Shown: positions 1 to 16,359, numbered from the stretch's first letter. The stretch: DNA of 17,601 bases from a virus (IMGVR_UViG_2695420739_000021); one strand, 5' to 3'. Numbers and translations are program-made. Notes: a model not told the origin generated them from the sequence alone.

Positions 1-99
1 ATGGCGGCAGCACAACCGCTGGTATTTGATGCAGAACTGGACACCGTGCGTGAGCGTCTTGGTAGCGTAAAGGGCGGCGATGTGGAGTTCGGCAATTAA
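1..99 (+). CDS. 3' end of an upstream host gene (partial; product unknown)
   Basis: Open frame from window start to TAA at 97-99; lies outside the repeated unit; followed by hairpin terminators. Product not recognised. Confidence 0.3.
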   Translation: MAAAQPLVFDAELDTVRERLGSVKGGDVEFGN

Positions 100-296
100 C
101 AGCCGCAACAGCGTGAACACTGATGCGGGAGCTGGCTTTGAGCAAACATTGACGGGCCTGACGCTCGGTATCGATAGTCGTTTCTCCTGTGAAGAAAGCA
201 GCACAACTCAGGCGGGTGTAGTCTGGACGTTCTGATAACAGAAAATAAACAGGCCGTGATGTGTCGCGGTCTGTTTATCGAATTAAATGCAGATAT

Positions 297-328
297 AAAA
301 AAACCAACCGCAATAGGTTGGTTTTCTT
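297..328. terminator. Bidirectional intrinsic terminator in left flank
   Basis: A-run, stem AACCAACC / GGTTGGTT (302-309 / 316-323) with 6-nt loop, then TTCTT; reads as hairpin plus U-tract on both strands. Confidence 0.5.
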
Positions 329-342
329 GGGATTTTTGGTCC

Positions 343-375
343 ACGAGAGTAGTTTAATTGAGTATGTAACTACAT
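343..375. other. Candidate att core region (attL side), with inverted repeat GTAGTT / AACTAC
   Basis: Identity between the two unit starts begins at 342/9051. Inverted repeat 349-354 / 368-373 resembles core-type integrase half-sites. Exact crossover cannot be fixed without attB. Confidence 0.3.
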
Positions 376-410
376 GATTTTAAATAGTATGCTTGATTCA
401 ACTTTTAAAC

Positions 411-434
411 CGTATAACTAAACGTATAACTAAA
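411..434. repeat. Tandem 12-bp direct repeats CGTATAACTAAA x2 (putative integrase arm-type sites, P' arm)
   Basis: Perfect tandem copies at 411-422 and 423-434; same motif occurs four times upstream of int (8858-8912). Confidence 0.45.
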
Positions 435-660
435 ATCATTTGCTGAAAAAGTGTACAATTTAAATGCGAGTTTTCCTGTGGTAAAAGCTCCAACCGTAAC
501 GATGTTCGTTATGGTTGCCTTGATGGTCTGCGTGGTCATTATGACCATTCAGGATTTGAAGGGTGACGCTTCCGACTTCCTCAAATTGAGGTTTCCGAAA
601 ATATCAGCGGGTTAGCGATTAATCTGACCATTAATTAAACTGCGAAAATTTCGTAATTAT

Positions 661-686
661 CCCGATATGGGGATCACCATATCGGG
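661..686 (-). terminator. Hairpin downstream of capsid-like gene (putative operon terminator)
   Basis: Perfect 10-bp inverted repeat CCCGATATGG / CCATATCGGG with 6-nt spacer, just 3' of the gene ending at 703; followed by AU-rich rather than a clean U-tract. Confidence 0.35.
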
Positions 687-702
687 ATTGATGCCGGAAA
701 AA

Positions 703-1629
703 TCAGCTTTTCGCCAGAACGGTGACGGCCTTATCGAGTTTTTGCCATCCGCAATAGGTGATTGCCCTGAACGCTGTAGCGTCATTCTGGAAAAGGCTAA
801 CCGTCCCTGATTCGGTTTTTATTACCGCCTCATCAGTTGGGGTTATAACCGTGGCTTCAACGTTAATAATCAGCTTTTGAGCGTCTATCAGCATCATGCG
901 ATCCGCCTGTTCGCTCACAATTACCGGTATTCTCAAAAGCTCTATCTGCCAGAACTCAGCATCAGTAAGCTGTAAGGCGTTTTCTACGGGCAAGATTAGC
1001 GACGACGTGGCAAGCGTGTTACCGTTCGCTATGTGCTTTTTGAAAAGCTCTATGAAGTTTTCGGCCTCATCAGCACCATTAAGCACGCCCTCAGGGGATA
1101 CGCCCGCCACCTCCTGGTCACTGGAAAGAAATTTTTTATCTATTTCTTTCACCGATTCCGATGTGATCAAGTCTCTGATCGCTGAATTGGTACCAGGGGT
1201 GCTAAATTTGATTAGCTCGTTATTCAGCATCACAATAGCGCCAAGTTTGCACAGTTTTAGCGCACTTTCGTTTACTTCTCCCTCTTTGACAGGGATTTCT
1301 TCGGCTTCTTTAAGCCATTTACTACCCTTGCCTGATATTGACTGCAATTTTGCGCCAAACGGAAGATTCAGCGCGCTGCTGATTAGCTTGCCTGGTACAG
1401 ACTGCGAAAAAATATACTCGCCAAGCTCTCTTACTATCGGCTCTGCCACCAGCGACGGCATATTATCCGTAGTCATTCCGGCAACAATGGATTTTTCAAG
1501 AAATTTCGATACTGCCGGATCATTTTTTTTCGTCATTTCAATTGCGTCTGCATGGCTGAATTTACACGATGTAAGCACGCTGGCGGCGCGAACTGCCGAC
1601 ACGCCTTTCATGTTTTTAGAAATCATCAT
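703..1629 (-). CDS. HK97-fold major capsid protein-like (308 aa, no delta/scaffold domain)
   Basis: ATGATG start with AGGAGG about 8 nt upstream. Segment KLGAIVMLNNELIKF...EVAGVSPEGVLNGA resembles the conserved HK97-family capsid motif. Last gene of the terS operon. Assignment is from memory, not a search. Confidence 0.5.
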   Translation of the reverse strand: MMISKNMKGVSAVRAASVLTSCKFSHADAIEMTKKNDPAVSKFLEKSIVAGMTTDNMPSLVAEPIVRELGEYIFSQSVPGKLISSALNLPFGAKLQSISGKGSKWLKEAEEIPVKEGEVNESALKLCKLGAIVMLNNELIKFSTPGTNSAIRDLITSESVKEIDKKFLSSDQEVAGVSPEGVLNGADEAENFIELFKKHIANGNTLATSSLILPVENALQLTDAEFWQIELLRIPVIVSEQADRMMLIDAQKLIINVEATVITPTDEAVIKTESGTVSLFQNDATAFRAITYCGWQKLDKAVTVLAKS

Positions 1630-1777
1630 CTTCTTCCTCCTGGTAACATGGGGTTAGGGTTTCGTGAAAATATGGCATCAGAACAGCGGCAGCCTGTAAC
1701 CGTATTTCGGTTGGCTGCTGCTTGTCGTTCATGATTTCCGTGAGTACATCAATAGGGTCTGTGATGTATTCGCTCAT
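1616..1777 (-). CDS. Hypothetical small protein (53 aa) with acidic C-terminal tail
   Basis: ATG at 1777, 11 nt after terS stop; MSEYITDPIDVLTEIMNDKQQPTEIRLQAAAVLMPYFHETLTPCYQEEEDDDF; overlaps capsid start by 14 nt. Not in ORF track (under length cutoff). Confidence 0.35.
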   Translation of the reverse strand: MSEYITDPIDVLTEIMNDKQQPTEIRLQAAAVLMPYFHETLTPCYQEEEDDDF

Positions 1778-1788
1778 AGTTCGCTACC

Positions 1789-2277
1789 TCAGTGTTTTAA
1801 GCCAGTTGGTGGCTTAGGGATGGGGAACCGATTTGAGGAGACATTAGCGGCATTGAGTTTTTTAACCTCTTTTTTCCCAATGCTGCCGATCTTGCGGTGG
1901 GTGAACTGGGCCAGCTTAAACGCGGCATCTAAAGCCAGTTTTGGATCTGTGTCCATGTTGTCAATCAGTATCCTGCCCATTGCTTTGATGGGGTCGGGTA
2001 GGCCGTTATCCATCATCTCAATGGTGTTAATTGATGCCCGTTCCGGTGTAACTTTTTCGGTAACTTTCTTTGTAACTTTTTTCGGTTTTGTAACCTGAAA
2101 AGTTACATCAGAAGTTACAGCCTTAAGATACTTTTTCACCTCCGGATCATTGGATAGCTGCCAGCCTTTAACCCTTGCAGTCTTTTCGCTGTATCCCGCA
2201 TGTATCGCGGCTTCCGTTGGATTTGTGCCCTTTGATAACGCATCAGCAAACCGCTTTTTTTTGGTCGTTAATGCCAT
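1789..2277 (-). CDS. terS: Terminase small subunit (N-terminal HTH type)
   Basis: Internal ATG (MALTTKKKRFADALSKGTNPTEAAIHAGYSEKTARVKGWQL...) matches the TerS DNA-binding N-terminus. The track's longer 208-aa start is an unlikely N-terminal extension. Confidence 0.7.
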   Translation of the reverse strand: MALTTKKKRFADALSKGTNPTEAAIHAGYSEKTARVKGWQLSNDPEVKKYLKAVTSDVTFQVTKPKKVTKKVTEKVTPERASINTIEMMDNGLPDPIKAMGRILIDNMDTDPKLALDAAFKLAQFTHRKIGSIGKKEVKKLNAANVSSNRFPIPKPPTGLKH

Positions 2278-2323
2278 GCAAAAACCTCGTTTTGAGGGGG
2301 TGTAACTTTTCGTGTAACTTTTT
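2048..2323. repeat. Cluster of GTAAC(T)TTT repeats inside and just upstream of terS (candidate pac site)
   Basis: Direct copies at about 2048, 2060, 2072, 2090, 2302, 2313 and inverted AGTTAC at about 2101 and 2113. Two copies lie upstream of the terS start codon, so not purely a coding-repeat effect. Confidence 0.35.
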
Positions 2324-2404
2324 TGAAAAGCAAAATTTTCTATGAATGAGACTGGGGGCGGTGTCCAGGGCGATCGACTTTCCGGCCGGAACACTCCCCC
2401 CCTG

Positions 2405-2566
2405 TCATTGCTCACCGAGTAACGAGATCAGGCCTTCAACTTCATCACTCAGCTTGTTTATTCGTGTCTCAAGCTCTGCGATCTTTTCCATCAATGGCGC
2501 TATGGTGTCTCTTGTTTCCTCGCCAATGGCTTTAATGATGCTTGCCTCGCGTTCTGTGATAGCCAT
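2405..2566 (-). CDS. Hypothetical small coiled-coil protein (53 aa)
   Basis: ATG 3 nt after the stop of the preceding 64-aa gene; MAITEREASIIKAIGEETRDTIAPLMEKIAELETRINKLSDEVEGLISLLGEQ. Not in ORF track. Confidence 0.3.
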   Translation of the reverse strand: MAITEREASIIKAIGEETRDTIAPLMEKIAELETRINKLSDEVEGLISLLGEQ

Positions 2567-2569
2567 TGT

Positions 2570-2764
2570 TTACGCCTCACTTGTTGCAATGCCCAGGCGT
2601 TCGCGTAACAGTACGCGCGCAAGATGCCCTATTGTTGGTGTTGCCGCCCTGCCGTAGATACCTGATTCATTCATCCGGCGCACAATATCGAACTGCAACT
2701 TTTTAAGCTCGTTAAGGATTTCATGATCAATCATCACGGTAGCGCTTTGCTTTATCTCTTCCAC
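2570..2764 (-). CDS. Hypothetical small protein (64 aa), first gene of packaging operon; possible DNA-binding
   Basis: GTG start at 2764 with AGGAG 8 nt upstream; sits after an AT-rich promoter-like region and the terminator of the preceding unit. Confidence 0.4.
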   Translation of the reverse strand: MEEIKQSATVMIDHEILNELKKLQFDIVRRMNESGIYGRAATPTIGHLARVLLRERLGIATSEA

Positions 2765-2852
2765 TTTGTTTTCTCCTGATACTTATCATTGCATAACCAG
2801 TATTTTCGATAGATTATCATTAATTAACCATATTTGAAGATATATGAGATCG

Positions 2853-2876
2853 AAAAAAAGCCGGATTGCTCCGGCT
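2853..2876 (-). terminator. Intrinsic terminator after the 81-aa gene
   Basis: Minus-strand hairpin GCCGGAGCAATCCGGC followed by U7 (plus strand: A-run 2853-2859, hairpin 2860-2875). Confidence 0.6.
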
Positions 2877-2894
2877 ATGTGCTCACTTCTTCGG

Positions 2895-3140
2895 TTATTC
2901 TCCAGCGCTTTTAACGTTGATGGTTGTTACCTGTTCCGCTTCGGCAATCTCCCGTTCTGTCAGCGTGGCAAAGTTTGCCGCCGCTGTGGTCATGAATGCG
3001 CTTATCAGTTCGGGATGCTCCTTCGCGTATCCTTCCCCCGCGTGGCGGTCTATCGTTCTGATTGCCACCTTTAAGGAAAGCTCTGTCATGTCTAACGCTT
3101 TATATTTTGGCGCTGTCTTATCTCTGGTTTTTCTGTTCAT
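2895..3140 (-). CDS. Hypothetical protein (81 aa), origin-adjacent
   Basis: ATG at 3140 directly abutting the iteron array; followed by the intrinsic terminator. Confidence 0.35.
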   Translation of the reverse strand: MNRKTRDKTAPKYKALDMTELSLKVAIRTIDRHAGEGYAKEHPELISAFMTTAAANFATLTEREIAEAEQVTTINVKSAGE

Positions 3141-3345
3141 TCCCCACTACTCCCCACTTTTGCTCCCCACTTTTTGAAATTACCCACCGTCTCCCCACCT
3201 CTTTTTTTTGTGATTCTAACGTTATGTTTTTCAATATGTTTTTTACTCCCCACTTTTTTGGGTATATACAGGTGGGAAAGTGGGTAATTATGTTTCAATT
3301 TTGTTAAATTCCCCACTCCCCCCACTTTTACTCCCCACTTTTTAC
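3141..3345. repeat. Replication origin candidate: iterons (C)TCCCCACTTTT plus AT-rich segment
   Basis: At least 8 direct copies (3141, 3150, 3163, 3191, 3245, 3310, 3319, 3331), 2 inverted (GTGGGAAAGTGGGTA at 3272-3286), and AT-rich stretch 3201-3245. Directly 3' of the rep gene. Confidence 0.6.
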
Positions 3346-4675
3346 AGCGGGCGCACGTCATCACCGTCAATAACGATTACGCCATCATTTTCCAGCTTGT
3401 ACAGCCAGCGCCGGAAGTGCTTCATCTCATACCCCAGCTTTTTCATATCGTCGCGGAGAAGGGCGATAGTGCACGCCTCCCCGTGTGCTGTTCGTGTTCT
3501 GATGCACTGCCATAGCGCGGCGTGATTCTCCGTCTTGTTCCCTGCCTCCTCGATGCGCTCCAGTTCAACGGGAGGGCGCGGCTTATCCACCACCACCAGC
3601 GACGTGATTAACTCCCCGTCAGCGTCGGTAAAAAGCTCCACCACGCGTAAGTCATATGCTGCTTCTTTGAGTTCCTCCGCGTCCTTCATTTTGGTACATG
3701 AGATAACCAGCGCTTCGCTGCCTGCGTCCTCCCTGCGTATCCGGTATTCGGCGTCCAGTGATGCACGAAATGCACTGGAACCACGCGCCCCCTTTGTTTC
3801 ATCCTTGCCGGAATGGTGAACCACCAGCACCGTTGCCCCTGTGCGCCGTTTCAGTTCGTCACACCCACGGATAAACGCCCCCATATCACGGGAATCATTT
3901 TCATCATTGCCGCCAAAGCAGCGCGCCAGCGTATCCAGAATAATCATTCGAACCGGTTTACCCGTTTCCCGTTCCACCTGACGGGCAGCGATAACCATTT
4001 CACGTGCACAACCTCCCAGGCTTTTACACGACGCGGAACACCTATACCGCCTTCACCAACCACATAGAGAACCGCACCATGTGCAACCCTGCGGCCTCCC
4101 CACTGGCGACCAGTGGCAACATGGCACGCCCACGATCCGGCAAGGAATGATTTATAGGACCCGCTAGCCCCGTATATGCTGCATAGCGATACCGCCGGAA
4201 TAATCCCCTTAACCACGTAATCCAGTTGCGTGTCGTATCCGGTAGATCCAACGCTCATCGGTAGCGTGGTTTTTCGCTGGTGGTTTTTTTCTTCCGCCGG
4301 CTCTTTCCCGCGCACCCGTTCCAGGTATTCGCGCCAGTTCTCCCGCATATGGCTGTGCATCCCTTCGGGGTAATAATTCGCATCAGTTACACCCGCCGCC
4401 GCCAGCTTGTGCGCAATGGCATTAATATTTGATGGCCTGATGTGGCCTGCCTTGTACAGCCGGACACAATAGCGCCCCTCGTCGATGATTCTCAGGTCTG
4501 CCAGTTCATCCAGTTGATCATCAGCCAGCACAACGGGAGGCACATTATCGCCAGCCAGTCGCCCGTCCTGTTCCTGCCACTGTTTCGCATGTGCCCAGGC
4601 ATCACTACCCGCAAAAATAATGACTTCGGTCATCTTGTCGTAAGGCTGTTTTTTTAAGTTCGGTGCGCTTTTCAT
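3342..4675 (-). pseudogene. Disrupted replication protein (AAA_25/RepA-like), split by 67-bp deletion
   Basis: Copy 2 has one 466-aa ORF; copy 1 is split into 3944..4675 (N-terminal, Walker A GASGSYKSF, frameshifted tail) and 3342..3998 (C-terminal, Walker B MIILD). Deletion at about 3999-4001. Confidence 0.7.
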
Positions 4676-4971
4676 TTCTTGCCCCTGAATCCGTTAATCA
4701 TGGTTTTCAGCTTCTGGATGTTTGCCCGTGCCCTGGCGTTGCTGGTGGGCACGTTATGCGGCGCGGTCTGTACCAGAGAAAAATCACGCCGGAACTGATA
4801 AACAGGCATCACGCAATCATATTCGTAACCTTCACGGCGGTAAGTTACGCACCGTCCCGCCACGCCCTTAATCATTACCGTGCCGCCGTACTGGTCGCGG
4901 TAAATATCACCGCGCGTAAATTTAGGGTGAGTGTTGCCACTGGCAGTTAAGCCAGAATATTTAAGTTTCAT
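4672..4971 (-). CDS. Hypothetical protein (99 aa), translationally coupled to rep
   Basis: ATG at 4971 with GGAG upstream; stop overlaps rep start (ATGA). Confidence 0.4.
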   Translation of the reverse strand: MKLKYSGLTASGNTHPKFTRGDIYRDQYGGTVMIKGVAGRCVTYRREGYEYDCVMPVYQFRRDFSLVQTAPHNVPTSNARARANIQKLKTMINGFRGKK

Positions 4972-4976
4972 TATTT

Positions 4977-5210
4977 TTATTCTCCGGTGTGCTGTTCGTT
5001 ATATCTGTCGTGCAATGTCTCTATTTCCTGCAACTCATTTATTACAGGCTCAAGAAGCGTTATTAATGCCGTGACAATTCTTGATTTTTGTTTGTCGCGT
5101 TCATTGTCGCCAAGTGTTTCAAGCCATATGCGCAATATTTCGTACATACCTTCAGCGTAAGCAAGGGCACTAAATGCGCGGTCTATTGTTTCGTGGTAAA
5201 TATCACGCAT
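4977..5210 (-). CDS. Small acidic helical protein (77 aa)
   Basis: ATG at 5210; net negative charge; overlaps stop of the upstream gene (TAATATG). Confidence 0.4.
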   Translation of the reverse strand: MRDIYHETIDRAFSALAYAEGMYEILRIWLETLGDNERDKQKSRIVTALITLLEPVINELQEIETLHDRYNEQHTGE

Positions 5211-5211
5211 A

Positions 5212-5433
5212 TTAATCCCCGTCCGTTGTTTTTCTTAAAACAGCTTCTGTCACGAAATCAGCATAGTTAGCGGCAATATCAAGAATATTTAGCCCTGTAT
5301 CTCTGTGCTCATCAGTGCAAAGAAAGAAAAAAGCCACCCGCATAATTTCAGATATTGACGAAAGCGCATCAGCCGCATCATCAGGAACGCCGGAAAATTC
5401 TTGTTTCAGGGAATTAAAACGATCATCACGCAT
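5212..5433 (-). CDS. Small acidic protein (73 aa), paralog of the next gene (PDDAADAL motif)
   Basis: Start MRDDRF with a G8 run as ribosome-binding site; overlaps the upstream gene (ATGCGTGA). Confidence 0.4.
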   Translation of the reverse strand: MRDDRFNSLKQEFSGVPDDAADALSSISEIMRVAFFFLCTDEHRDTGLNILDIAANYADFVTEAVLRKTTDGD

Positions 5434-5647
5434 AACCCCCCCCATTTTCACAATCAGCAACAAGAATATTTTTAGCGTCATTCAGCGACCGCGTTGCGAT
5501 GTATCGGATACATTCCAGGGCGAACTGTGTCCGGTCTTTCTGTTCTTCTCCCTGCGCAAGCTCTGCAGTGCATTCAATATCGATAAGCGCGTGCATCAGC
5601 GTAGTGAGCGCGTCGGCTGCTGCGTCCGGTGTGGTTTTATTGCACAT
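5426..5647 (-). CDS. Small acidic protein (73 aa), paralog (TPDAAADAL motif)
   Basis: Start MCNKTT with AGGAGG 7 nt upstream; overlaps the Icd-like stop. Confidence 0.4.
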   Translation of the reverse strand: MCNKTTPDAAADALTTLMHALIDIECTAELAQGEEQKDRTQFALECIRYIATRSLNDAKNILVADCENGGGYA

Positions 5648-6197
5648 GGCACACCTCCTGACGAATACGGGCGGCGAATACAGCAACACAACCGGACGGG
5701 CAACGGCTACGCGCTTCGCGTTCCGTCCAGGCGGTTACGTGGATGATTTGATGTTCTGACGCGCCAAAGATGATAAAGCGCCAGAGAAAGGCGGTTTGAG
5801 AATGTACAAGGGTAGGGATAGTAGCCATGTTGGCAGCCTCCTCAGTGTGGTTAAGATAACCGCCACCGGAAACGCCAATTTCGCTGGTGGCGGACTGTAC
5901 AGGGTTGGCGTAACCGGACACTGAAGAAACCGGCGCGGATTGCTCCGCCCCCGTACAGCCCACCATTGATAAGGTGTGACTATGCGGCACAAAAAAACAC
6001 GCGGGGCGCGTGTTATGCGCTTCAGTTTTGCCCAGGACGCCAATCCCGGCACCCGTTTTATGAGGTGCGCGGGAATCATAGCTATTTTCGACACTGGCGA
6101 TCAACTGGTTTTTTTCTCCGATATTCAGGGCCAGAAAACGCCACACAAAGGCCGTTTGTGTGTGTACAAGGTGTGGTATATGATTTACGGCAACCAT
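5637..6197 (-). CDS. Icd-like (Ash-family) protein, tandem two-domain reading frame; internal start at 5828 gives a 63-aa Icd-like product
   Basis: Two paralogous segments share HLVH(T/S)QTAF(V/L)WRF; distal one ends ...TEREARSR...VFAARIRQEV, like P4-type Icd-like proteins. No stop between them. GAGGAGG precedes the internal ATG at 5828; GGAG precedes ATG at 6197. Confidence 0.45.
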   Translation of the reverse strand: MVAVNHIPHLVHTQTAFVWRFLALNIGEKNQLIASVENSYDSRAPHKTGAGIGVLGKTEAHNTRPACFFVPHSHTLSMVGCTGAEQSAPVSSVSGYANPVQSATSEIGVSGGGYLNHTEEAANMATIPTLVHSQTAFLWRFIIFGASEHQIIHVTAWTEREARSRCPSGCVAVFAARIRQEVCHVQ

Positions 6198-6285
6198 AAC
6201 GGCTCCTAGTTTACGTTGTTGGTTAGACGCCCCGTATGTGTTCCCAGCACTGCGGGGCGTTGATTTTTGTGTAATGGCAAGTACA

Positions 6286-6329
6286 ATGGTAATTACCATG
6301 TAGGTATAGTAATGAAGGGTAATTACCAT
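6286..6329. promoter_or_regulatory. Paired palindromic operators in divergent promoter region
   Basis: Perfect 14-bp palindrome ATGGTAATTACCAT (6286-6299) and 12-bp GGTAATTACCAT (6318-6329), centres 30 bp apart; second overlaps the RHH start codon. Possible TATAGT -10 at 6305-6310. Confidence 0.5.
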
Positions 6330-6501
6330 GTCAACACCATTAGAAAAACGTTCGCCTCCATACCAAATGCGATTACCGGAAGACTTCAGAGCGCAGCTAG
6401 AAGAAGCAGCTAAGGCCGATGGCGACACATCTTTAGCCACTTGGATTAAACGCGTTCTCCGCAAAGAATTACAGCAACGCGGCATAGAACCCAAAGGATA
6501 A
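6328..6501 (+). CDS. Ribbon-helix-helix (Arc/CopG-like) DNA-binding protein, 57 aa; putative element repressor
   Basis: MSTPLEKRSPPYQMRLPEDFRAQLEEAAKADGDTSLATWIKRVLRKELQQRGIEPKG fits the Arc-type RHH pattern. Divergent from the Icd/rep operon. Not in ORF track. Confidence 0.5.
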   Translation: MSTPLEKRSPPYQMRLPEDFRAQLEEAAKADGDTSLATWIKRVLRKELQQRGIEPKG

Positions 6502-6543
6502 AAACTATCAGCGCCGTGGTGTGAGGTATTACGGCGCATTGCT

Positions 6544-6732
6544 ATGCAGGACAACACAATGACCGATAAAGAATTGACCAAAACATTATCACCGGCACGG
6601 AAAAGACGGCGCAGAAAGATAGAGCATGAATCAGAAAGATTCGCGCCATGTGCTTTTGCCCTTGAGCAATTCCTTAAAGAGTACAGGGAAAAGCGCTCAT
6701 TGCAGGTATGGCAACGAACTGAACCAGACTGA
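6544..6732 (+). CDS. Hypothetical basic small protein (62 aa)
   Basis: ORF between RHH gene and the plus-strand terminator; weak ribosome-binding site; arginine-rich stretch KRRRRK. Confidence 0.25.
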   Translation: MQDNTMTDKELTKTLSPARKRRRRKIEHESERFAPCAFALEQFLKEYREKRSLQVWQRTEPD

Positions 6733-6827
6733 TTGCATTGCCCACCAGCCTGATAGCGGCTATCATCCCCGTGCTTATGTTTGGGATCACATACACATAA
6801 GGCGCAGCGGGTTAATTGTTCAGAAAG

Positions 6828-6854
6828 GCGGCTCCATATCGGGGCCGCTTTTTT
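6828..6854 (+). terminator. Intrinsic terminator at convergence of RHH unit and alpA
   Basis: Stem GCGGCTCC / GGGGCCGC (one G-U pair), 5-nt loop, then T6. Confidence 0.55.
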
Positions 6855-6880
6855 CGTGTTTGTCATATCTGTGATACCCG

Positions 6881-7087
6881 TTAAGCAGCCGTTCCGCGTG
6901 CTTCCTCTTCGCGTTCTTTCTGCCAGGACAACACATCATCCTCATACCATCCGCGACGGCGTAAACCAACGCGAAAACCCTGCGGAAATTCTCCGGCGTT
7001 GATCATGCTTTGCAGCGTGCTGTCTGCCTTGATGTGGATAATTTTTTTTACTTCCTGGCGAAAGATAATTTTTCTGATTGCTTCCAT
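6881..7087 (-). CDS. alpA: AlpA-family regulator / excisionase-like protein (68 aa)
   Basis: ...STLQSMINAGEFPQGFRVGLRRRGWYEDDVLSWQ matches the AlpA-family HTH pattern. Confidence 0.75.
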   Translation of the reverse strand: MEAIRKIIFRQEVKKIIHIKADSTLQSMINAGEFPQGFRVGLRRRGWYEDDVLSWQKEREEEARGTAA

Positions 7088-7103
7088 CGTGATTTACCTT
7101 GTG

Positions 7104-7191
7104 AATCCGGTGTATTCCGGTGACAAATACGGTAAATCATCGGATATGGGTAAAAACAGTTCCCACCGTTTTTAAACGGTATACACCGTTT
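7104..7191. promoter_or_regulatory. alpA upstream control region: TCCGGTG repeats and ACCGTTT/AAACGGT inverted repeats
   Basis: ATCCGGTG (7104-7111) and TTCCGGTGA (7114-7122) spaced 10 bp; inverted repeats at 7165-7180 and 7174-7191. The TCCGGTG motif recurs next to the att core. Confidence 0.35.
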
Positions 7192-7220
7192 TTTATATTG
7201 ATGATTTGAAATGGAATTAT

Positions 7221-7243
7221 AAAAAAAGCGGCATTTCTGCCGC
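7221..7243 (-). terminator. Intrinsic terminator of the int / 83-aa unit
   Basis: Minus-strand hairpin GCGGCAGAAATGCCGC followed by U7. Confidence 0.6.
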
Positions 7244-7254
7244 TTCCAGGATTG

Positions 7255-7506
7255 TTACCGCCATTTTTTGGGCCTGCCTCCGATCTTCATAGATGCCGGA
7301 CGTACGACCTTATCAATACTTACCGCCAGATTTCTGGAAGCGCCACGGGATACCAGAAAATCTACTACCTGTTTTTTTGATGGGGCCGTCGTTCTGTCCT
7401 CCGGATCGTAGGTTGACCAAAATTCATGCTGAACCATCAGGGCCAGTTGCAGCCCGTCGCAATTGCATCTGATATTTTTTTGCATCTTAACGGTTTCATG
7501 TTTCAC
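7255..7506 (-). CDS. Hypothetical int-linked small protein (83 aa)
   Basis: ORF downstream of int on the same strand, before the terminator; GTG start at 7506 (alternative ATG at M8); TATAAT motif about 28 nt upstream. Confidence 0.4.
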   Translation of the reverse strand: MKHETVKMQKNIRCNCDGLQLALMVQHEFWSTYDPEDRTTAPSKKQVVDFLVSRGASRNLAVSIDKVVRPASMKIGGRPKKWR

Positions 7507-7583
7507 GGCCTTGTCGTTAAATTTGATGCAATTATACGACGGTTTTACATGGTTTTCGTAGTTTTTACTGGTTTTCTGTACAG

Positions 7584-8825
7584 CTACACGGCTCGGATAC
7601 CCCTTTTACCACTGGCGAGGGTTACGCCCGTCGCCGCAGCCTCGACAAATTCGCCCCACCAGCGCATCAGCACGATGCGTTTTTCTATGTAGTTGCTCCG
7701 GTTGTATGCCCGTCTAACTTCGTTGGTGTCGACGTGGGCAAGTGCCGCCTCTATTACGTCCGGCTCGAATCCTTCCTCGTTCGCTGCTGTGCTGAATATG
7801 GCGCGTAATCCATGAGACACCAGCACGCCAGCGAATCCCATACGCCGCAATGCTGCGTTAGCTGTCTGGCTGTTCATCGGCTGCTGTGGGTCTTTCAGAC
7901 TTGGGAAAACGTAATTGCGGTGGTGGCTGATTGGTTTCATGGCCTCCAGCACCGCCATAGCCTGACCGGAAAGCGGGATAACGTGATCCCTGCGCATCTT
8001 CATGCGTCCGGCAGGTATCGTCCATTGCTTCGCGTCCAGGTTGATTTCATCCCACCGCGTTGATGACGCTTCGGCGGGACGGGTTACGGTCAGTAACTGC
8101 CATTCAATCAGTAATCTGGTCTGCCGTTCTGTTGCCGATACTGATAAAGCCTGCATAAGCTCGGGCAGCTGTTCGGGGCGGATTGTTGGCATATGTTTTT
8201 TTACAGGTGAGGGAAACGCCTTACGCACATTCATAGCCGGATTGGCATCAATCAGCCCACTGTTGGCGGCGTAATCCATTACCTCATTAACGCGCTGTAA
8301 AACCCGCTTGAGTGTTTCCAGGTTGCCGCGCTCCTTGATGGGGGTAAGCACTTCAACGAACCTTCGGGCGGTGAGGGTATCTATTGGCGTGTTGCCGATG
8401 AACGGGAATACATATTTATCCAGCGAACGCCAGATGTCTTTAATCGTGTTGGGGGCCAGATTCTGGCTGATTTTCACCTGGTACCATGCCGCCGCCACAT
8501 TTTCGAACGTGTTCCCTTGTCTTCGGGCCTCTGTCTCTCTTTTTTGCCTCTCGTGGTCCTGCGGGTCAGTTCCGGCACTGATTAACGTCCTGTACTCGCT
8601 ACGGCGTTTTCTGGCATCAGCCAGGGAAACATCTTCAAGCGATCCAAAACTCAGCAATATTCTTTTTTTGTCCGATGGTCGGTAGTAGGAAAATCTCCAG
8701 AGTTTTGATCCAGACGGTTTGACCAGGAGAAAAAGCCCTCCGCCGTCCTGCAGGGTGTACTCCTTTTGCGCTGGTCTGGCTGCTTTGATCTGCACTGTGG
8801 TTAATGGGTGTGTTTTTCTCGCCAT
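7584..8825 (-). CDS. int: Tyrosine integrase, P4-type (413 aa)
   Basis: N-terminus MARKTHPLTTVQIKAARPAQKEYTLQDGGGLFLLVKPSGSKLWRFSYY is typical of P4-like integrases; ATG at 8825 preferred over the upstream GTG. Confidence 0.85.
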   Translation of the reverse strand: MARKTHPLTTVQIKAARPAQKEYTLQDGGGLFLLVKPSGSKLWRFSYYRPSDKKRILLSFGSLEDVSLADARKRRSEYRTLISAGTDPQDHERQKRETEARRQGNTFENVAAAWYQVKISQNLAPNTIKDIWRSLDKYVFPFIGNTPIDTLTARRFVEVLTPIKERGNLETLKRVLQRVNEVMDYAANSGLIDANPAMNVRKAFPSPVKKHMPTIRPEQLPELMQALSVSATERQTRLLIEWQLLTVTRPAEASSTRWDEINLDAKQWTIPAGRMKMRRDHVIPLSGQAMAVLEAMKPISHHRNYVFPSLKDPQQPMNSQTANAALRRMGFAGVLVSHGLRAIFSTAANEEGFEPDVIEAALAHVDTNEVRRAYNRSNYIEKRIVLMRWWGEFVEAAATGVTLASGKRGIRAV

Positions 8826-8857
8826 ATGTCTATGATTCCACACGAAAAAACAGGGTT

Positions 8858-8912
8858 TTAGTTATACGGCTTTAGTTATACGCCAGCCCGTATAACTAAA
8901 CGTATAACTAAA
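8858..8912. repeat. Four copies of CGTATAACTAAA (two inverted, two direct): putative arm-type sites, P arm
   Basis: TTTAGTTATACG at about 8858 and 8871; CGTATAACTAAA at about 8890 and 8901. Same motif as 411-434. Confidence 0.45.
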
Positions 8913-8923
8913 AAATCCGGCTG

Positions 8924-9037
8924 ATAGCTTATAAATCCGGTGATGTTCGGTGACTAAAAAACATAAAAAAACCCGCCAATCAAGTGATTAGCGGGTTATC
9001 CCTGTCTTATCCGGTGCTTTCCGGTGATATCCGGTGG
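8924..9037. repeat. TCCGGTG direct repeats, three phased at 10 bp, next to att core (candidate directionality-factor sites)
   Basis: Copies at about 8924 (variant), 8935, 8946 (variant), 9009, 9019, 9029; the last three are exactly 10 bp apart. Confidence 0.4.
8962..8997 (-). terminator. Intrinsic terminator between the copy-2 capsid operon and int
   Basis: Minus-strand stem AACCCGC / GCGGGTT with 14-nt loop followed by U7. Confidence 0.5.
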
Positions 9038-9119
9038 GCGATTTGGTCGGCACGAGAGTAGTTTAATTGAGTATGTAACTACATGATTTTAAATAGTATG
9101 CTTGATTCAACTTTTAAAC

Positions 9120-9143
9120 CGTATAACTAAACGTATAACTAAA
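9120..9143. repeat. Tandem CGTATAACTAAA x2 (P' arm of junction attP)
   Basis: Copy-2 equivalent of 411-434; with 8858-9037 and the core near 9051 this forms a full attP-like site. Confidence 0.45.
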
Positions 9144-9411
9144 ATCATTTGCTGAAAAAGTGTACAATTTAAATGCGAGTTTTCCTGTGGTAAAAGCTCC
9201 AACCGTAACGATGTTCGTTATGGTTGCCTTGATGGTCTGCGTGGTCATTATGACCATTCAGGATTTGAAGGGTGACGCTTCCGACTTCCTCAAATTGAGG
9301 TTTCCGAAAATATCAGCGGGTTAGCGATTAATCTGACCATTAATTAAACTGCGAAAATTTCGTAATTATCCCGATATGGGGATCACCATATCGGGATTGA
9401 TGCCGGAAAAA

Positions 9412-10338
9412 TCAGCTTTTCGCCAGAACGGTGACGGCCTTATCGAGTTTTTGCCATCCGCAATAGGTGATTGCCCTGAACGCTGTAGCGTCATTCTGGA
9501 AAAGGCTAACCGTCCCTGATTCGGTTTTTATTACCGCCTCATCAGTTGGGGTTATAACCGTGGCTTCAACGTTAATAATCAGCTTTTGAGCGTCTATCAG
9601 CATCATGCGATCCGCCTGTTCGCTCACAATTACCGGTATTCTCAAAAGCTCTATCTGCCAGAACTCAGCATCAGTAAGCTGTAAGGCGTTTTCTACGGGC
9701 AAGATTAGCGACGACGTGGCAAGCGTGTTACCGTTCGCTATGTGCTTTTTGAAAAGCTCTATGAAGTTTTCGGCCTCATCAGCACCATTAAGCACGCCCT
9801 CAGGGGATACGCCCGCCACCTCCTGGTCACTGGAAAGAAATTTTTTATCTATTTCTTTCACCGATTCCGATGTGATCAAGTCTCTGATCGCTGAATTGGT
9901 ACCAGGGGTGCTAAATTTGATTAGCTCGTTATTCAGCATCACAATAGCGCCAAGTTTGCACAGTTTTAGCGCACTTTCGTTTACTTCTCCCTCTTTGACA
10001 GGGATTTCTTCGGCTTCTTTAAGCCATTTACTACCCTTGCCTGATATTGACTGCAATTTTGCGCCAAACGGAAGATTCAGCGCGCTGCTGATTAGCTTGC
10101 CTGGTACAGACTGCGAAAAAATATACTCGCCAAGCTCTCTTACTATCGGCTCTGCCACCAGCGACGGCATATTATCCGTAGTCATTCCGGCAACAATGGA
10201 TTTTTCAAGAAATTTCGATACTGCCGGATCATTTTTTTTCGTCATTTCAATTGCGTCTGCATGGCTGAATTTACACGATGTAAGCACGCTGGCGGCGCGA
10301 ACTGCCGACACGCCTTTCATGTTTTTAGAAATCATCAT
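9412..10338 (-). CDS. HK97-fold major capsid protein-like (copy 2)
   Basis: Identical translation to 703..1629. Confidence 0.5.
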   Translation of the reverse strand: MMISKNMKGVSAVRAASVLTSCKFSHADAIEMTKKNDPAVSKFLEKSIVAGMTTDNMPSLVAEPIVRELGEYIFSQSVPGKLISSALNLPFGAKLQSISGKGSKWLKEAEEIPVKEGEVNESALKLCKLGAIVMLNNELIKFSTPGTNSAIRDLITSESVKEIDKKFLSSDQEVAGVSPEGVLNGADEAENFIELFKKHIANGNTLATSSLILPVENALQLTDAEFWQIELLRIPVIVSEQADRMMLIDAQKLIINVEATVITPTDEAVIKTESGTVSLFQNDATAFRAITYCGWQKLDKAVTVLAKS

Positions 10339-10486
10339 CTTCTTCCTCCTGGTAACATGGGGTTAGGGTTTCGTGAAAATATGGCATCAGAACAGCGGCA
10401 GCCTGTAACCGTATTTCGGTTGGCTGCTGCTTGTCGTTCATGATTTCCGTGAGTACATCAATAGGGTCTGTGATGTATTCGCTCAT
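10325..10486 (-). CDS. Hypothetical small protein with acidic tail (copy 2)
   Basis: Copy of 1616..1777 at +8709. Confidence 0.35.
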   Translation of the reverse strand: MSEYITDPIDVLTEIMNDKQQPTEIRLQAAAVLMPYFHETLTPCYQEEEDDDF

Positions 10487-10497
10487 AGTTCGCTACC

Positions 10498-10986
10498 TCA
10501 GTGTTTTAAGCCAGTTGGTGGCTTAGGGATGGGGAACCGATTTGAGGAGACATTAGCGGCATTGAGTTTTTTAACCTCTTTTTTCCCAATGCTGCCGATC
10601 TTGCGGTGGGTGAACTGGGCCAGCTTAAACGCGGCATCTAAAGCCAGTTTTGGATCTGTGTCCATGTTGTCAATCAGTATCCTGCCCATTGCTTTGATGG
10701 GGTCGGGTAGGCCGTTATCCATCATCTCAATGGTGTTAATTGATGCCCGTTCCGGTGTAACTTTTTCGGTAACTTTCTTTGTAACTTTTTTCGGTTTTGT
10801 AACCTGAAAAGTTACATCAGAAGTTACAGCCTTAAGATACTTTTTCACCTCCGGATCATTGGATAGCTGCCAGCCTTTAACCCTTGCAGTCTTTTCGCTG
10901 TATCCCGCATGTATCGCGGCTTCCGTTGGATTTGTGCCCTTTGATAACGCATCAGCAAACCGCTTTTTTTTGGTCGTTAATGCCAT
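10498..10986 (-). CDS. terS: Terminase small subunit (copy 2)
   Basis: Identical to 1789..2277; ATG confirmed at 10984-10986 (plus-strand CAT). Confidence 0.7.
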   Translation of the reverse strand: MALTTKKKRFADALSKGTNPTEAAIHAGYSEKTARVKGWQLSNDPEVKKYLKAVTSDVTFQVTKPKKVTKKVTEKVTPERASINTIEMMDNGLPDPIKAMGRILIDNMDTDPKLALDAAFKLAQFTHRKIGSIGKKEVKKLNAANVSSNRFPIPKPPTGLKH

Positions 10987-11113
10987 GCAAAAACCTCGTT
11001 TTGAGGGGGTGTAACTTTTCGTGTAACTTTTTTGAAAAGCAAAATTTTCTATGAATGAGACTGGGGGCGGTGTCCAGGGCGATCGACTTTCCGGCCGGAA
11101 CACTCCCCCCCTG

Positions 11114-11275
11114 TCATTGCTCACCGAGTAACGAGATCAGGCCTTCAACTTCATCACTCAGCTTGTTTATTCGTGTCTCAAGCTCTGCGATCTTTTCCAT
11201 CAATGGCGCTATGGTGTCTCTTGTTTCCTCGCCAATGGCTTTAATGATGCTTGCCTCGCGTTCTGTGATAGCCAT
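11114..11275 (-). CDS. Hypothetical coiled-coil protein, 53 aa (copy 2)
   Basis: Copy of 2405..2566. Confidence 0.3.
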   Translation of the reverse strand: MAITEREASIIKAIGEETRDTIAPLMEKIAELETRINKLSDEVEGLISLLGEQ

Positions 11276-11278
11276 TGT

Positions 11279-11473
11279 TTACGCCTCACTTGTTGCAATG
11301 CCCAGGCGTTCGCGTAACAGTACGCGCGCAAGATGCCCTATTGTTGGTGTTGCCGCCCTGCCGTAGATACCTGATTCATTCATCCGGCGCACAATATCGA
11401 ACTGCAACTTTTTAAGCTCGTTAAGGATTTCATGATCAATCATCACGGTAGCGCTTTGCTTTATCTCTTCCAC
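11279..11473 (-). CDS. Hypothetical small protein, 64 aa (copy 2)
   Basis: Identical translation to 2570..2764. Confidence 0.4.
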   Translation of the reverse strand: MEEIKQSATVMIDHEILNELKKLQFDIVRRMNESGIYGRAATPTIGHLARVLLRERLGIATSEA

Positions 11474-11603
11474 TTTGTTTTCTCCTGATACTTATCATTG
11501 CATAACCAGTATTTTCGATAGATTATCATTAATTAACCATATTTGAAGATATATGAGATCGAAAAAAAGCCGGATTGCTCCGGCTATGTGCTCACTTCTT
11601 CGG

Positions 11604-11849
11604 TTATTCTCCAGCGCTTTTAACGTTGATGGTTGTTACCTGTTCCGCTTCGGCAATCTCCCGTTCTGTCAGCGTGGCAAAGTTTGCCGCCGCTGTGGTC
11701 ATGAATGCGCTTATCAGTTCGGGATGCTCCTTCGCGTATCCTTCCCCCGCGTGGCGGTCTATCGTTCTGATTGCCACCTTTAAGGAAAGCTCTGTCATGT
11801 CTAACGCTTTATATTTTGGCGCTGTCTTATCTCTGGTTTTTCTGTTCAT
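11604..11849 (-). CDS. Hypothetical origin-adjacent protein, 81 aa (copy 2)
   Basis: Identical translation to 2895..3140. Confidence 0.35.
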   Translation of the reverse strand: MNRKTRDKTAPKYKALDMTELSLKVAIRTIDRHAGEGYAKEHPELISAFMTTAAANFATLTEREIAEAEQVTTINVKSAGE

Positions 11850-12054
11850 TCCCCACTACTCCCCACTTTTGCTCCCCACTTTTTGAAATTACCCACCGTC
11901 TCCCCACCTCTTTTTTTTGTGATTCTAACGTTATGTTTTTCAATATGTTTTTTACTCCCCACTTTTTTGGGTATATACAGGTGGGAAAGTGGGTAATTAT
12001 GTTTCAATTTTGTTAAATTCCCCACTCCCCCCACTTTTACTCCCCACTTTTTAC
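11850..12054. repeat. Replication origin iterons (copy 2)
   Basis: Same TCCCCACTTTT iteron array as 3141..3345. Confidence 0.6.
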
Positions 12055-13451: not shown

Positions 13452-13747
13452 TTCTTGCCCCTGAATCCGTTAAACATGGTTTTCAGCTTCTGGATGTTTG
13501 CCCGTGCCCTGGCGTTGCTGGTGGGCACGTTATGCGGCGCGGTCTGTACCAGAGAAAAATCACGCCGGAACTGATAAACAGGCATCACGCAATCATATTC
13601 GTAACCTTCACGGCGGTAAGTTACGCACCGTCCCGCCACGCCCTTAATCATTACCGTGCCGCCGTACTGGTCGCGGTAAATATCACCGCGCGTAAATTTA
13701 GGGTGAGTGTTGCCACTGGCAGTTAAGCCAGAATATTTAAGTTTCAT
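13448..13747 (-). CDS. Hypothetical protein, 99 aa, coupled to rep (copy 2)
   Basis: Copy of 4672..4971 with one substitution (I to F). Confidence 0.4.
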   Translation of the reverse strand: MKLKYSGLTASGNTHPKFTRGDIYRDQYGGTVMIKGVAGRCVTYRREGYEYDCVMPVYQFRRDFSLVQTAPHNVPTSNARARANIQKLKTMFNGFRGKK

Positions 13748-13752
13748 TATTT

Positions 13753-13986
13753 TTATTCTCCGGTGTGCTGTTCGTTATATCTGTCGTGCAATGTCTCTAT
13801 TTCCTGCAACTCATTTATTACAGGCTCAAGAAGCGTTATTAATGCCGTGACAATTCTTGATTTTTGTTTGTCGCGTTCATTGTCGCCAAGTGTTTCAAGC
13901 CATATGCGCAATATTTCGTACATACCTTCAGCGTAAGCAAGGGCACTAAATGCGCGGTCTATTGTTTCGTGGTAAATATCACGCAT
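13753..13986 (-). CDS. Small acidic helical protein, 77 aa (copy 2)
   Basis: Identical translation to 4977..5210. Confidence 0.4.
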   Translation of the reverse strand: MRDIYHETIDRAFSALAYAEGMYEILRIWLETLGDNERDKQKSRIVTALITLLEPVINELQEIETLHDRYNEQHTGE

Positions 13987-13987
13987 A

Positions 13988-14209: not shown

Positions 14210-14423
14210 AACCCCCCCCATTTTCACAATCAGCAACAAGAATATTTTTAGCGTCATTCAGCGACCGCGTTGCGATGTATCGGATACATTCCAGGGCGAA
14301 CTGTGTCCGGTCTTTCTGTTCTTCTCCCTGCGCAAGCTCTGCAGTGCATTCAATATCGATAAGCGCGTGCATCAGCGTAGTGAGCGCGTCGGCTGCTGCG
14401 TCCGGTGTGGTTTTATTGCACAT
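14202..14423 (-). CDS. Small acidic protein, 73 aa (copy 2)
   Basis: Copy of 5426..5647. Confidence 0.4.
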   Translation of the reverse strand: MCNKTTPDAAADALTTLMHALIDIECTAELAQGEEQKDRTQFALECIRYIATRSLNDAKNILVADCENGGGYA

Positions 14424-14973
14424 GGCACACCTCCTGACGAATACGGGCGGCGAATACAGCAACACAACCGGACGGGCAACGGCTACGCGCTTCGCGTTCC
14501 GTCCAGGCGGTTACGTGGATGATTTGATGTTCTGACGCGCCAAAGATGATAAAGCGCCAGAGAAAGGCGGTTTGAGAATGTACAAGGGTAGGGATAGTAG
14601 CCATGTTGGCAGCCTCCTCAGTGTGGTTAAGATAACCGCCACCGGAAACGCCAATTTCGCTGGTGGCGGACTGTACAGGGTTGGCGTAACCGGACACTGA
14701 AGAAACCGGCGCGGATTGCTCCGCCCCCGTACAGCCCACCATTGATAAGGTGTGACTATGCGGCACAAAAAAACACGCGGGGCGCGTGTTATGCGCTTCA
14801 GTTTTGCCCAGGACGCCAATCCCGGCACCCGTTTTATGAGGTGCGCGGGAATCATAGCTATTTTCGACACTGGCGATCAACTGGTTTTTTTCTCCGATAT
14901 TCAGGGCCAGAAAACGCCACACAAAGGCCGTTTGTGTGTGTACAAGGTGTGGTATATGATTTACGGCAACCAT
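14413..14973 (-). CDS. Icd-like (Ash-family) tandem two-domain protein (copy 2)
   Basis: Copy of 5637..6197; internal start at 14604. Confidence 0.45.
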   Translation of the reverse strand: MVAVNHIPHLVHTQTAFVWRFLALNIGEKNQLIASVENSYDSRAPHKTGAGIGVLGKTEAHNTRPACFFVPHSHTLSMVGCTGAEQSAPVSSVSGYANPVQSATSEIGVSGGGYLNHTEEAANMATIPTLVHSQTAFLWRFIIFGASEHQIIHVTAWTEREARSRCPSGCVAVFAARIRQEVCHVQ

Positions 14974-15061
14974 AACGGCTCCTAGTTTACGTTGTTGGTT
15001 AGACGCCCCGTATGTGTTCCCAGCACTGCGGGGCGTTGATTTTTGTGTAATGGCAAGTACA

Positions 15062-15105
15062 ATGGTAATTACCATGTAGGTATAGTAATGAAGGGTAATT
15101 ACCAT
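15062..15105. promoter_or_regulatory. Paired palindromic operators (copy 2)
   Basis: Copy of 6286..6329. Confidence 0.5.
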
Positions 15106-15277
15106 GTCAACACCATTAGAAAAACGTTCGCCTCCATACCAAATGCGATTACCGGAAGACTTCAGAGCGCAGCTAGAAGAAGCAGCTAAGGCCGATGGCG
15201 ACACATCTTTAGCCACTTGGATTAAACGCGTTCTCCGCAAAGAATTACAGCAACGCGGCATAGAACCCAAAGGATAA
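15104..15277 (+). CDS. Ribbon-helix-helix DNA-binding protein (copy 2)
   Basis: Copy of 6328..6501; ATG confirmed at 15104. Confidence 0.5.
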   Translation: MSTPLEKRSPPYQMRLPEDFRAQLEEAAKADGDTSLATWIKRVLRKELQQRGIEPKG

Positions 15278-15319
15278 AAACTATCAGCGCCGTGGTGTGA
15301 GGTATTACGGCGCATTGCT

Positions 15320-15508
15320 ATGCAGGACAACACAATGACCGATAAAGAATTGACCAAAACATTATCACCGGCACGGAAAAGACGGCGCAGAAAGATAGAG
15401 CATGAATCAGAAAGATTCGCGCCATGTGCTTTTGCCCTTGAGCAATTCCTTAAAGAGTACAGGGAAAAGCGCTCATTGCAGGTATGGCAACGAACTGAAC
15501 CAGACTGA
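15320..15508 (+). CDS. Hypothetical basic small protein, 62 aa (copy 2)
   Basis: Copy of 6544..6732. Confidence 0.25.
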   Translation: MQDNTMTDKELTKTLSPARKRRRRKIEHESERFAPCAFALEQFLKEYREKRSLQVWQRTEPD

Positions 15509-15656
15509 TTGCATTGCCCACCAGCCTGATAGCGGCTATCATCCCCGTGCTTATGTTTGGGATCACATACACATAAGGCGCAGCGGGTTAATTGTTCAGA
15601 AAGGCGGCTCCATATCGGGGCCGCTTTTTTCGTGTTTGTCATATCTGTGATACCCG

Positions 15657-16282: not shown

Positions 16283-16359
16283 GGCCTTGTCGTTAAATTT
16301 GATGCAATTATACGACGGTTTTACATGGTTTTCGTAGTTTTTACTGGTTTTCTGTACAG

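Follow-up and report, generated by a model that had tools for sequence, protein, structure and literature searches.

A probable P4 eta/kil-cI-type control module with a long open frame across its RNA genes in a PICI-like satellite

The DNA analysed here is a viral stretch of 17,601 nucleotides (nt; IMGVR_UViG_2695420739_000021), referred to below as the window, and all coordinates are positions in this whole stretch. The window consists of two tandem copies of a ~8.7-kb satellite resembling a phage-inducible chromosomal island (PICI), located at 335-8825 and 9042-17601 and 99.3-99.9% identical to each other. Matches to an integrase, an AAA_25 RepA-like helicase, Terminase_2 (terS) and Phage_capsid in the satellite unit place it among the PICI-like elements. 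We focused on the minus strand of the first copy, where a small Icd-like gene lies nested at the 3' end of much longer open reading frames (ORFs) (Table 1). As a first-pass annotation of the locus had proposed, 186 codons from ATG 6197 and 63 amino acids (aa) from ATG 5828 share one frame with no stop between the two starts. The Shine-Dalgarno (SD) sequence AGGAG at 6207-6203 belongs to the first start, and GAGGAGG at 5843-5837 precedes the second with a spacer of 8 nt. The frame had been taken to begin at 6197; it is in fact open up to ATG 6866 and comprises 409 codons. The 63-aa product matched the Icd-like family NF033153 of NCBIfam with 57.1 bits (cutoff 25, E 1.4e-15, aa 14-57), and its gene is called by the NCBI Prokaryotic Genome Annotation Pipeline (PGAP) at a 99.9%-identical locus in E2865. 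In the 186-aa ORF, NF033153 matched solely at aa 137-180, which is the distal copy, and Phage_ASH (PF10554) matched at aa 40-133 with 63 bits as the sole Ash-family signal. Near-identical public proteins carry the PGAP name 'Ash-like/host cell division inhibitor Icd-like protein'. The 186-codon ORF recurs identically at +8776 (14413-14973) in the second copy. The two copies do not differ over 5637 to at least 8799, a span that takes in the whole frame.

An Rfam scan at gathering thresholds called two RNA genes inside the 186-codon ORF, an IsrK-like small RNA (sRNA) and a C4/CI-type antisense RNA, and a promoter scan placed a promoter (P2) ahead of them that ends 7 nt before the IsrK +1. The segment that had been described as a linker is P2 plus the IsrK-like sRNA and the C4/CI antisense RNA, not a protein linker. 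The terminator scan showed that IsrK ends in an intrinsic terminator, with a stem at 6014-5996 plus a U7 tail; the T7 run at 5997-5991 is the U-tail of this G+C-rich hairpin. IsrK also carries the C4 targets b1 (6043-6037) and a1 (6026-6020), and C4 itself contains the loop a' (5929-5918) and b' (ACGCCAA, 5911-5905). The PF10554 match (window 5799-6080) is the translation of the isrK and C4 genes, and in P4 the match to the same family (L001 8330-8704) also coincides with isrK and C4. In the window at least, what the Phage_ASH 'domain' recognises is the translation of RNA genes and not a protein fold that has been demonstrated. As for the Ash/Icd similarity claimed in the first-pass annotation, the profile search bore out the Icd part for the distal copy, and the Ash match turned out to be translated RNA genes.

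The strong internal ribosome-binding site (RBS) of icd is, judged by complementarity, the predicted target of C4: ACACUGAGGAGG at 5848-5837 can pair with UUUCUUCAGUGU, the loop sequence of C4 hairpin 2. In addition, the heptamer UUGGCGU occurs twice, once just 3' of C4 and once in the hairpin 2 loop of IsrK, and the UUGGCGU and ACUGAAG motifs of IsrK are complementary to ACGCCAA and CUUCAGU of C4, respectively. A loop-versus-RBS helix search with a non-cognate control in 33 loci from different Enterobacterales showed covariation between the C4 loop and the bases that precede the SD on its 5' side, with a mean helix of 10.3 bp for cognate pairs versus 6.6 bp for non-cognate pairs. Whole-molecule RNAduplex predictions of C4 against candidate targets were dropped for their long unrealistic duplexes. 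We also observed that the PF10554 region varies in relatives as coordinated blocks (GIGV/YANP/EIGVS versus GIATP/CSNP/ELATS) that track the RNA pairing specificity.

Table 1. Features of the module and its surroundings in the window.
Feature	Position	Strand	Basis and remarks
Full stop-free frame, proposed Eta-like 'ribosome track'	5637..6866	-	409 codons, ATG 6866 to icd stop
186-codon ORF	5637..6197	-	ATG 6197-6195; stop at 5637; zero stops between
Nested 63-aa Icd-like / Kil-like gene	5637..5828	-	In-frame ATG 5828-5826; identical to WP_150322679.1
ACACUGAGGAGG, putative icd SD plus C4-loop target a2/seqC	5837..5848	-	12-15 bp complementarity to C4 positions 42-53
UUGGCGU, candidate second downstream target b2 of C4 ACGCCAA	5872..5878	-	Read from sequence
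C4 / P4-CI-type antisense RNA gene	5883..5970	-	Rfam RF01695, 77.6 bits, E 5e-14, full length
IsrK / P4-seqA-like sRNA	5991..6068	-	Rfam RF01394, 66 bits, at 6068-5992
P2 promoter, TTGATC-18-TATGAT	6075..6104	-	Sigma-70-like; promoter scan 9/12; inside ORF
Proximal Icd-like remnant (MVAVNHIPHLVHTQTAFVWRFLALNIGE...)	6105..6197	-	~30 codons; 5' end of another icd gene
Plus-strand promoter of ribbon-helix-helix unit	6260-6287	+	Promoter scan
P1 promoter, TTGACA-17-TACTAT	6306..6334	-	Promoter scan 10/12; upstream of ATG 6197
Ribbon-helix-helix (Arc / YlcI-YnfO-like) gene, presumed repressor	6328..6501	+	Weak Arc and NF041551 matches
62-aa gene	6544..6732	+	ORF list
Hairpin terminator of ribbon-helix-helix unit	6822-6854	+	Terminator scan
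AlpA/Vis-like helix-turn-helix gene	6881..7087	-	Pfam Phage_AlpA E 0.0028, below curated cutoff; PGAP 'helix-turn-helix transcriptional regulator'
Second copy of 409-codon frame	14413..15642	-	isrK 14844-14768, C4 14746-14659

Openness of the frame across the RNA genes in the window alone is weak evidence because a second frame is open there too; it was dropped as evidence, and frame statistics across loci were used instead. The survey comprised 38 non-redundant loci, all with isrK and C4, of which 22 were of the Icd type and 16 had longer non-Icd downstream ORFs. In the Icd-type loci, from other Enterobacterales, the frame had no stop between a point upstream of isrK and the start of icd in 21/22, and it was in frame with icd in 17/22. 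The other two frames of these 17 icd-continuous loci hold 1-6 stops and were open in only one of 34 cases, namely this window. Furthermore, the distance from the isrK start to the C4 start falls into five length classes (98, 101, 128, 140 and 185 nt) that are all 2 mod 3. In most of 20 loci, the frame has its first ATG within or right at the end of the gene ahead of it (-3, -7 or -39 nt relative to the stop of that gene; +15 in the window). A promoter-like sequence stands at the place of P2 in all 21 Icd-type loci and in P4. In four Icd-type loci (L012, L018, L021 and L027), the frame across the RNAs is one base off icd; it runs on for 364-400 nt beyond the icd ATG and overlaps the whole of icd in another frame.

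The 409-codon frame starts 14 nt past the stop of the AlpA-like gene, as seen in the ORF list and the sequence, and its codons 1-223 run antisense to the plus-strand ribbon-helix-helix (RHH) unit and also cross promoter P1. Under a null model that kept the opposite-strand proteins with resampled codons and shuffled the intergenic DNA, the probability of an open frame over 6866-6198 was 1.5e-4. The eight segments modelled, of which two have no homology to the window, each gave ~1e-4 or less. Relatives had values similar to or below that of the window; among them are strain 89-3156, with an open non-homologous segment of 307 codons, and OkiPb01689, where the frame has at least 520 codons. When 10 E. 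coli relatives were sampled regardless of their ORF status, the gap from alpA/Bro-N to icd was covered by one ORF or two overlapping ORFs in nine, over 420-1,560 nt and past 1-4 opposite-strand genes, and this pattern persisted down to 74% identity, including non-homologous segments. For the comparison of strands we used relatives at 74-79% identity, as O157:H7 was too similar over 6198-6860 (~10 differences); the frame of the O157 variant has 314 codons. Conservative replacements made up 10/22 in the RHH frame and 8/16 in the frame of the 62-aa gene, against 3/24 and 1/18 in the long frame. Because replacements were conservative only in the opposite-strand frames, the long frame appears to be kept stop-free but not constrained as a protein. 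A codon-position analysis cannot tell the strands apart here, since the long frame and the opposite-strand genes share their wobble positions.

Promoter P1 is bracketed by two GGTAATTACC palindromes, at 6288-6297 and 6318-6327, 30 bp apart, which by their placement are likely operators for the RHH protein; homologues of the RHH gene are annotated as coding sequences in relatives. One palindrome lies between the -35 and -10 of P1 and the other at its predicted start site; the RHH gene, which is divergent, has its ATG directly next to the upstream palindrome. The terminator of the RHH unit begins 12 nt after ATG 6866, and ribosomes starting there would read straight through it.

Taken together, these results make it probable that the locus is the immunity and early-control region of a PICI-like satellite, built like the eta/kil-cI region of P4, in which an Eta-like ORF would carry transcription past terminators and past the control by C4. 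By analogy with P4, transcripts from P2 would in the repressed state yield IsrK and then, by read-through and processing, C4. C4 would pair with the icd RBS and block translation, and the untranslated RNA would terminate before the replication genes. Upon induction, P1 (probably under the RHH protein at the palindromes) or the alpA promoter would fire, and ribosomes on the long frame would travel through the hairpin at 6854-6822, the terminator of IsrK, C4 and the site that C4 targets. Their passage would melt the structures and shield the RNA from Rho, such that both intrinsic and Rho-dependent termination would be prevented; Rho is known to suppress untranslated antisense transcription (PMC12360218). 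Expression would in this way become insensitive to immunity, and the long frame would serve as a ribosome track whose amino-acid sequence is unimportant.

A wider version of this idea is put forward tentatively, at slightly less than even chances. Selection may keep a continuous ribosome path from the alpA-type gene to the end of icd in this satellite and in its PICI-like and P4-like relatives. The path might consist of one ORF or of a chain of overlapping ORFs, 400 to >1,500 nt long and antisense through one to four repressor-side genes. It would then cross promoters, operators, two regulatory RNA genes and a bidirectional terminator, with the amino acids free to drift. Its only function, again as a tentative proposal, could be translation-coupled antitermination, in which ribosomes would keep Rho off an antisense transcript, melt the terminator of IsrK and cover the C4 target.

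Several observations weigh against an Eta-like role of the long frame. Five of the 22 Icd-type loci are out of frame with icd, only 8/16 loci with non-Icd downstream ORFs (81-195 aa) keep the frame, so that the feature is not universal, and the loci compared share ancestry, so that the counts are not independent. In the window, ATG 6866 has no clear SD, and a 119-aa ORF in another frame (6094-5735) is also open across both RNAs. In addition, PGAP treats the upstream parts of the long frame as pseudogenes, relatives of the O157:H7 type manage without the RNA cassette, and both translation of the 186- and 409-codon frames and antitermination are steps that we infer.

One alternative is an incidental open frame, with function confined to the 63-aa Icd-like protein and the two RNAs and with the long frames as untranslated by-products of G+C-rich structured RNA genes, of a recombination scar and of the shadow of opposite-strand genes. 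The second open frame across the RNAs, the shared wobble positions, the unconserved amino-acid sequence, the lack of a Pfam or NCBIfam match to aa 1-223 of the 409-codon frame and the pseudogene calls all agree with it. We nevertheless regard it as unlikely. The null model gave low probabilities in all eight segments, including the two non-homologous ones; the other two frames were open in 1/34 cases, whereas this frame spans the RNAs in 21/22 Icd-type loci; every indel between isrK and C4 has a length divisible by three; and the starts abut upstream genes. Moreover, eta of P4 is reported to be translated (PMC10111431).

The origin of the 186-codon version was traced through its proximal segment. 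The two ends of the 186-aa product are paralogous (15/27 identical over the N-terminal 27 residues of both, BLASTP E 2e-9), in line with the paralogous segments first described; two Icd-like domains were not found, as NF033153 matches the distal copy only and gave no match to the proximal segment (aa 1-43) at E up to 1, which leaves that segment outside the Icd-like model. In O157:H7 TR01, codons 1 to ~28 of an intact 65-aa icd match the DNA of the remnant almost completely. After ~codon 28, the DNA there runs directly into distal-type icd to form this one intact, hybrid gene, and the locus (L003 1704-1901) has neither isrK nor C4. DEC9B (L069 1574-2231) has a complete icd1 with its stop, followed by an a1b1/isrK-like element and C4 and then icd2. 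The proximal WRF segment was present in 34 of the top 120 protein clusters, 13 of which hold a longer form (...WRFIALSTAQPRVITIEATSEQEARQ joined to KNQLIA); the window has the short fused form, 15 codons shorter. The joint always lies just ahead of the P2 -35, and the WRF segment follows at least five different N-terminal contexts. These comparisons indicate that the proximal copy is the relic of an icd gene joined by a P2-isrK-C4-icd cassette and kept in frame, and icd repeats may act as recombination anchors for gain or loss of the RNA immunity cassette. The earlier suggestion that the proximal copy lost its stop codon is upheld in an evolutionary sense, by the stop in icd1 of DEC9B and by the longer fused copies. 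A sequencing error is not the cause, because the 186-aa form is identical in both window copies and 100% identical in two complete genomes, and two protein clusters, with 115 and 225 members, represent it.

A genuine two-domain Icd protein, as had been proposed, with both segments folding and acting, for example with a higher or different inhibition of cell division than the 63-aa form, is very improbable. Retention of the in-frame fusion in many clusters (the 34 with the WRF segment) and the near identity of the proximal N-terminus to the intact O157:H7 Icd-like protein speak for it. However, the proximal piece is too short: at ~30 aa it is without most of the NF033153 core (a 48-position model), the intervening 100 aa are a translated promoter and two RNA genes that vary with RNA pairing specificity, and the piece is found short, 15 aa longer or absent with the frame never lost. 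Least credible of all is the idea that T7 is a programmed slippage or phase-variation site setting the ratio of long to short product: in this frame U UUU UUU formally qualifies as a slippery heptamer, and one database protein, P0095, corresponds to the ORF with a frameshift, but the tract is the U-tail of a G+C-rich terminator within the Rfam IsrK model, is T7 in 19/21 loci (T6 with compensating spacing in the other two) and is identical in both window copies, the shift of P0095 lies inside C4 and not at the tract, and no conserved shifted-frame ORF was seen among the loci examined. The first-pass observation was thus real but mis-described, and its interpretation was partly right and partly wrong.

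Further features were noted around the module. On the plus strand, a promoter-like site lies at 5830-5857, opposite the icd start, and 370 nt downstream of it a terminator-like hairpin at 6222-6262 (ACGCCCCG...CGGGGCGT then TGATTTTTG); together they could yield a transcript antisense to C4 and IsrK. This hairpin would also fall in the 5' leader of transcripts from P1. An int-alpA RNA (RF02996) was found upstream of the module in three relatives (L006, L008 and L010) and an EFASI RNA (RF02957) 1.4-2.3 kb downstream in five loci (L031, L033, L034, L040 and L041); neither RF02996 nor RF02957 reached its gathering score in the window in the Rfam scan. The query region is present in two copies in E2865 and in three in 2009C_3996, E. 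coli strains that are both 100% identical to the window over 6198-6880; E2865 is 99.9% identical over 5500-6400. Within the window, copy 1 is without ~65 nt that are present at 12711-12774 in copy 2 (3342-4675 versus 12051-13451), and because of this its helicase is split into ORFs of 218 and 243 aa; the helicase of copy 2 is intact at 466 aa. Among the inter-copy substitutions in 4100-8799, 26 of 27 fall in 4109-4349, which looks like a recombination patch. The copy junction (8854-9037) contains two occurrences each of CGTATAACTAAA and its inverted partner TTTAGTTATACG, along with several (A/T)TCCGGTG repeats, which may be integrase arm sites or origin iterons, and no tRNA gene was found in the window.

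These findings bear on annotation, since Phage_ASH and the PGAP labels 'ash family' and 'Icd-like pseudogene' here mark translated RNA genes and a ribosome-track ORF, an issue that touches thousands of enterobacterial records. If the long frame is translated only for antitermination, it would offer a compact example of translation as an antitermination device and would imply that ORFs can stay open without protein-level constraint. If the path proves continuous across relatives as tentatively proposed, the single case of P4 eta would be generalised to a design principle of satellite switches. Furthermore, the four natural variants, namely complete icd1 plus cassette plus icd2, the long fused relic, the short fused relic of the window and the cassette-free form of O157:H7, provide ready comparisons for gain, swap and loss of RNA-based immunity in satellites.

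The window shares parts of this arrangement with three known systems. A match to P1-like phage DNA covers window 6068-5775. In the immI region (c4-icd-ant) of phages P1 and P7, C4 is reportedly processed from the transcript that it controls, as the 1990 work of Citron and Schuster and the 1993 work of Riedel and co-workers are said to describe. Its targets are said to be a1/b1 upstream and a2/b2 at the icd ribosome-binding site, and Icd is reportedly a small inhibitor of cell division that has to be translated for the genes downstream to be expressed. The a1b1 / a'b' / a2b2 logic of c4 matches the pairing layout of C4 in the window. The gene downstream differs, being the antirepressor ant in P1/P7 and small ORFs plus a replication helicase in the window, and we know of no long ORF across c4 described for phage P1.

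In the isrK-orf45-anrP region of Gifsy-1 (Salmonella), the IsrK sRNA has a leaky terminator (PMC4825925), and the window likewise has an IsrK-like sRNA ending in a terminator. A downstream processed RNA, STnc1160, pairs with IsrK in Gifsy-1; orf45 is translated over a C4-like RNA, is coupled to the next gene and is conserved at the nucleotide but not at the amino-acid level (PMC4825925). By position alignment, G28 and G31 of IsrK, which pair with orf45 (PMC4825925), fall in the UUGGCGU motif of the window. Unlike the window frame, the Gifsy-1 ORF begins downstream of the IsrK terminator and is AUGA-coupled to an antirepressor-like gene rather than nested with an Icd-like gene, and IsrK acts there as an activator in trans (PMC4825925).

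The closest counterpart is P4 (NC_001609), in which Rfam placed an isrK-like match at 8692-8615 and C4 (CI RNA) at 8507-8420 (74.9 bits). Its kil gene (65 aa, ATG 8365) is nested in the eta ORF (197 codons) ending at 8168; Eta matches Phage_ASH at aa 20-144 and the Icd-like model at aa 144-191, and Kil matches NF033153, so that the pair of profile matches is shared with the long and short products of the window. According to PMC10111431, a constitutive promoter, PLE, is internal to eta, and CI lies inside eta and is processed from the PLE transcript. The same source describes Kil as a truncated Eta, with full-length Eta translated only from the upstream late promoter, and eta as coupled to the alpA homologue, with its translation preventing termination. 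Its summary of Forti et al. 1999 provides a precedent for the earlier suggestion that a long and a short product are both made from one frame. CI, seqA and seqC of P4 are also treated in PMC4825925, and the C4 logic of the window corresponds to seqA/seqB/seqC there; C4 and isrK matches have been reported in Gram-negative PICIs (PMC10111431).

P4 and the window have in common the order of a promoter inside the long ORF (PLE, with P2 as its counterpart), an IsrK/seqA-like RNA ending in U7, C4/CI and an SD that pairs with the C4 loop, and in both elements 142 nt separate the start of C4 from the ATG. The long ORF of P4 starts next to the alpA/vis homologue, and that of the window may do likewise: its ATG follows the stop of the AlpA-like gene by 14 nt but has no clear SD, and the AlpA Pfam match is below cutoff. 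The window thus holds the components of a P4-type eta/kil-cI module: a C4/CI RNA between the two starts, a seqA/IsrK-like terminator element upstream, a Kil/Icd-like short gene whose RBS is the predicted C4 target, and a long same-frame ORF with an internal promoter. In contrast, the element that carries it is PICI-like, with a RepA-type helicase, terS and a capsid gene, whereas P4 has the alpha primase, sid and psu, and the gap between isrK and C4 is 21 nt in the window and 107 nt in P4. The long frame of the window has a length of 409 codons and passes in antisense orientation through both genes of the RHH operon, an extra promoter with an SD-preceded start (P1, ATG 6197) is present, and an icd relic forms the N-terminus of the 186-aa version; sequence comparison found no internal Icd-like repeat in P4 Eta (E 13). 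These results collectively indicate that the module is of the known P4 eta/kil-cI type, with three features beyond the P4 description: the long antisense frame, the extra promoter and start, and the icd relic.

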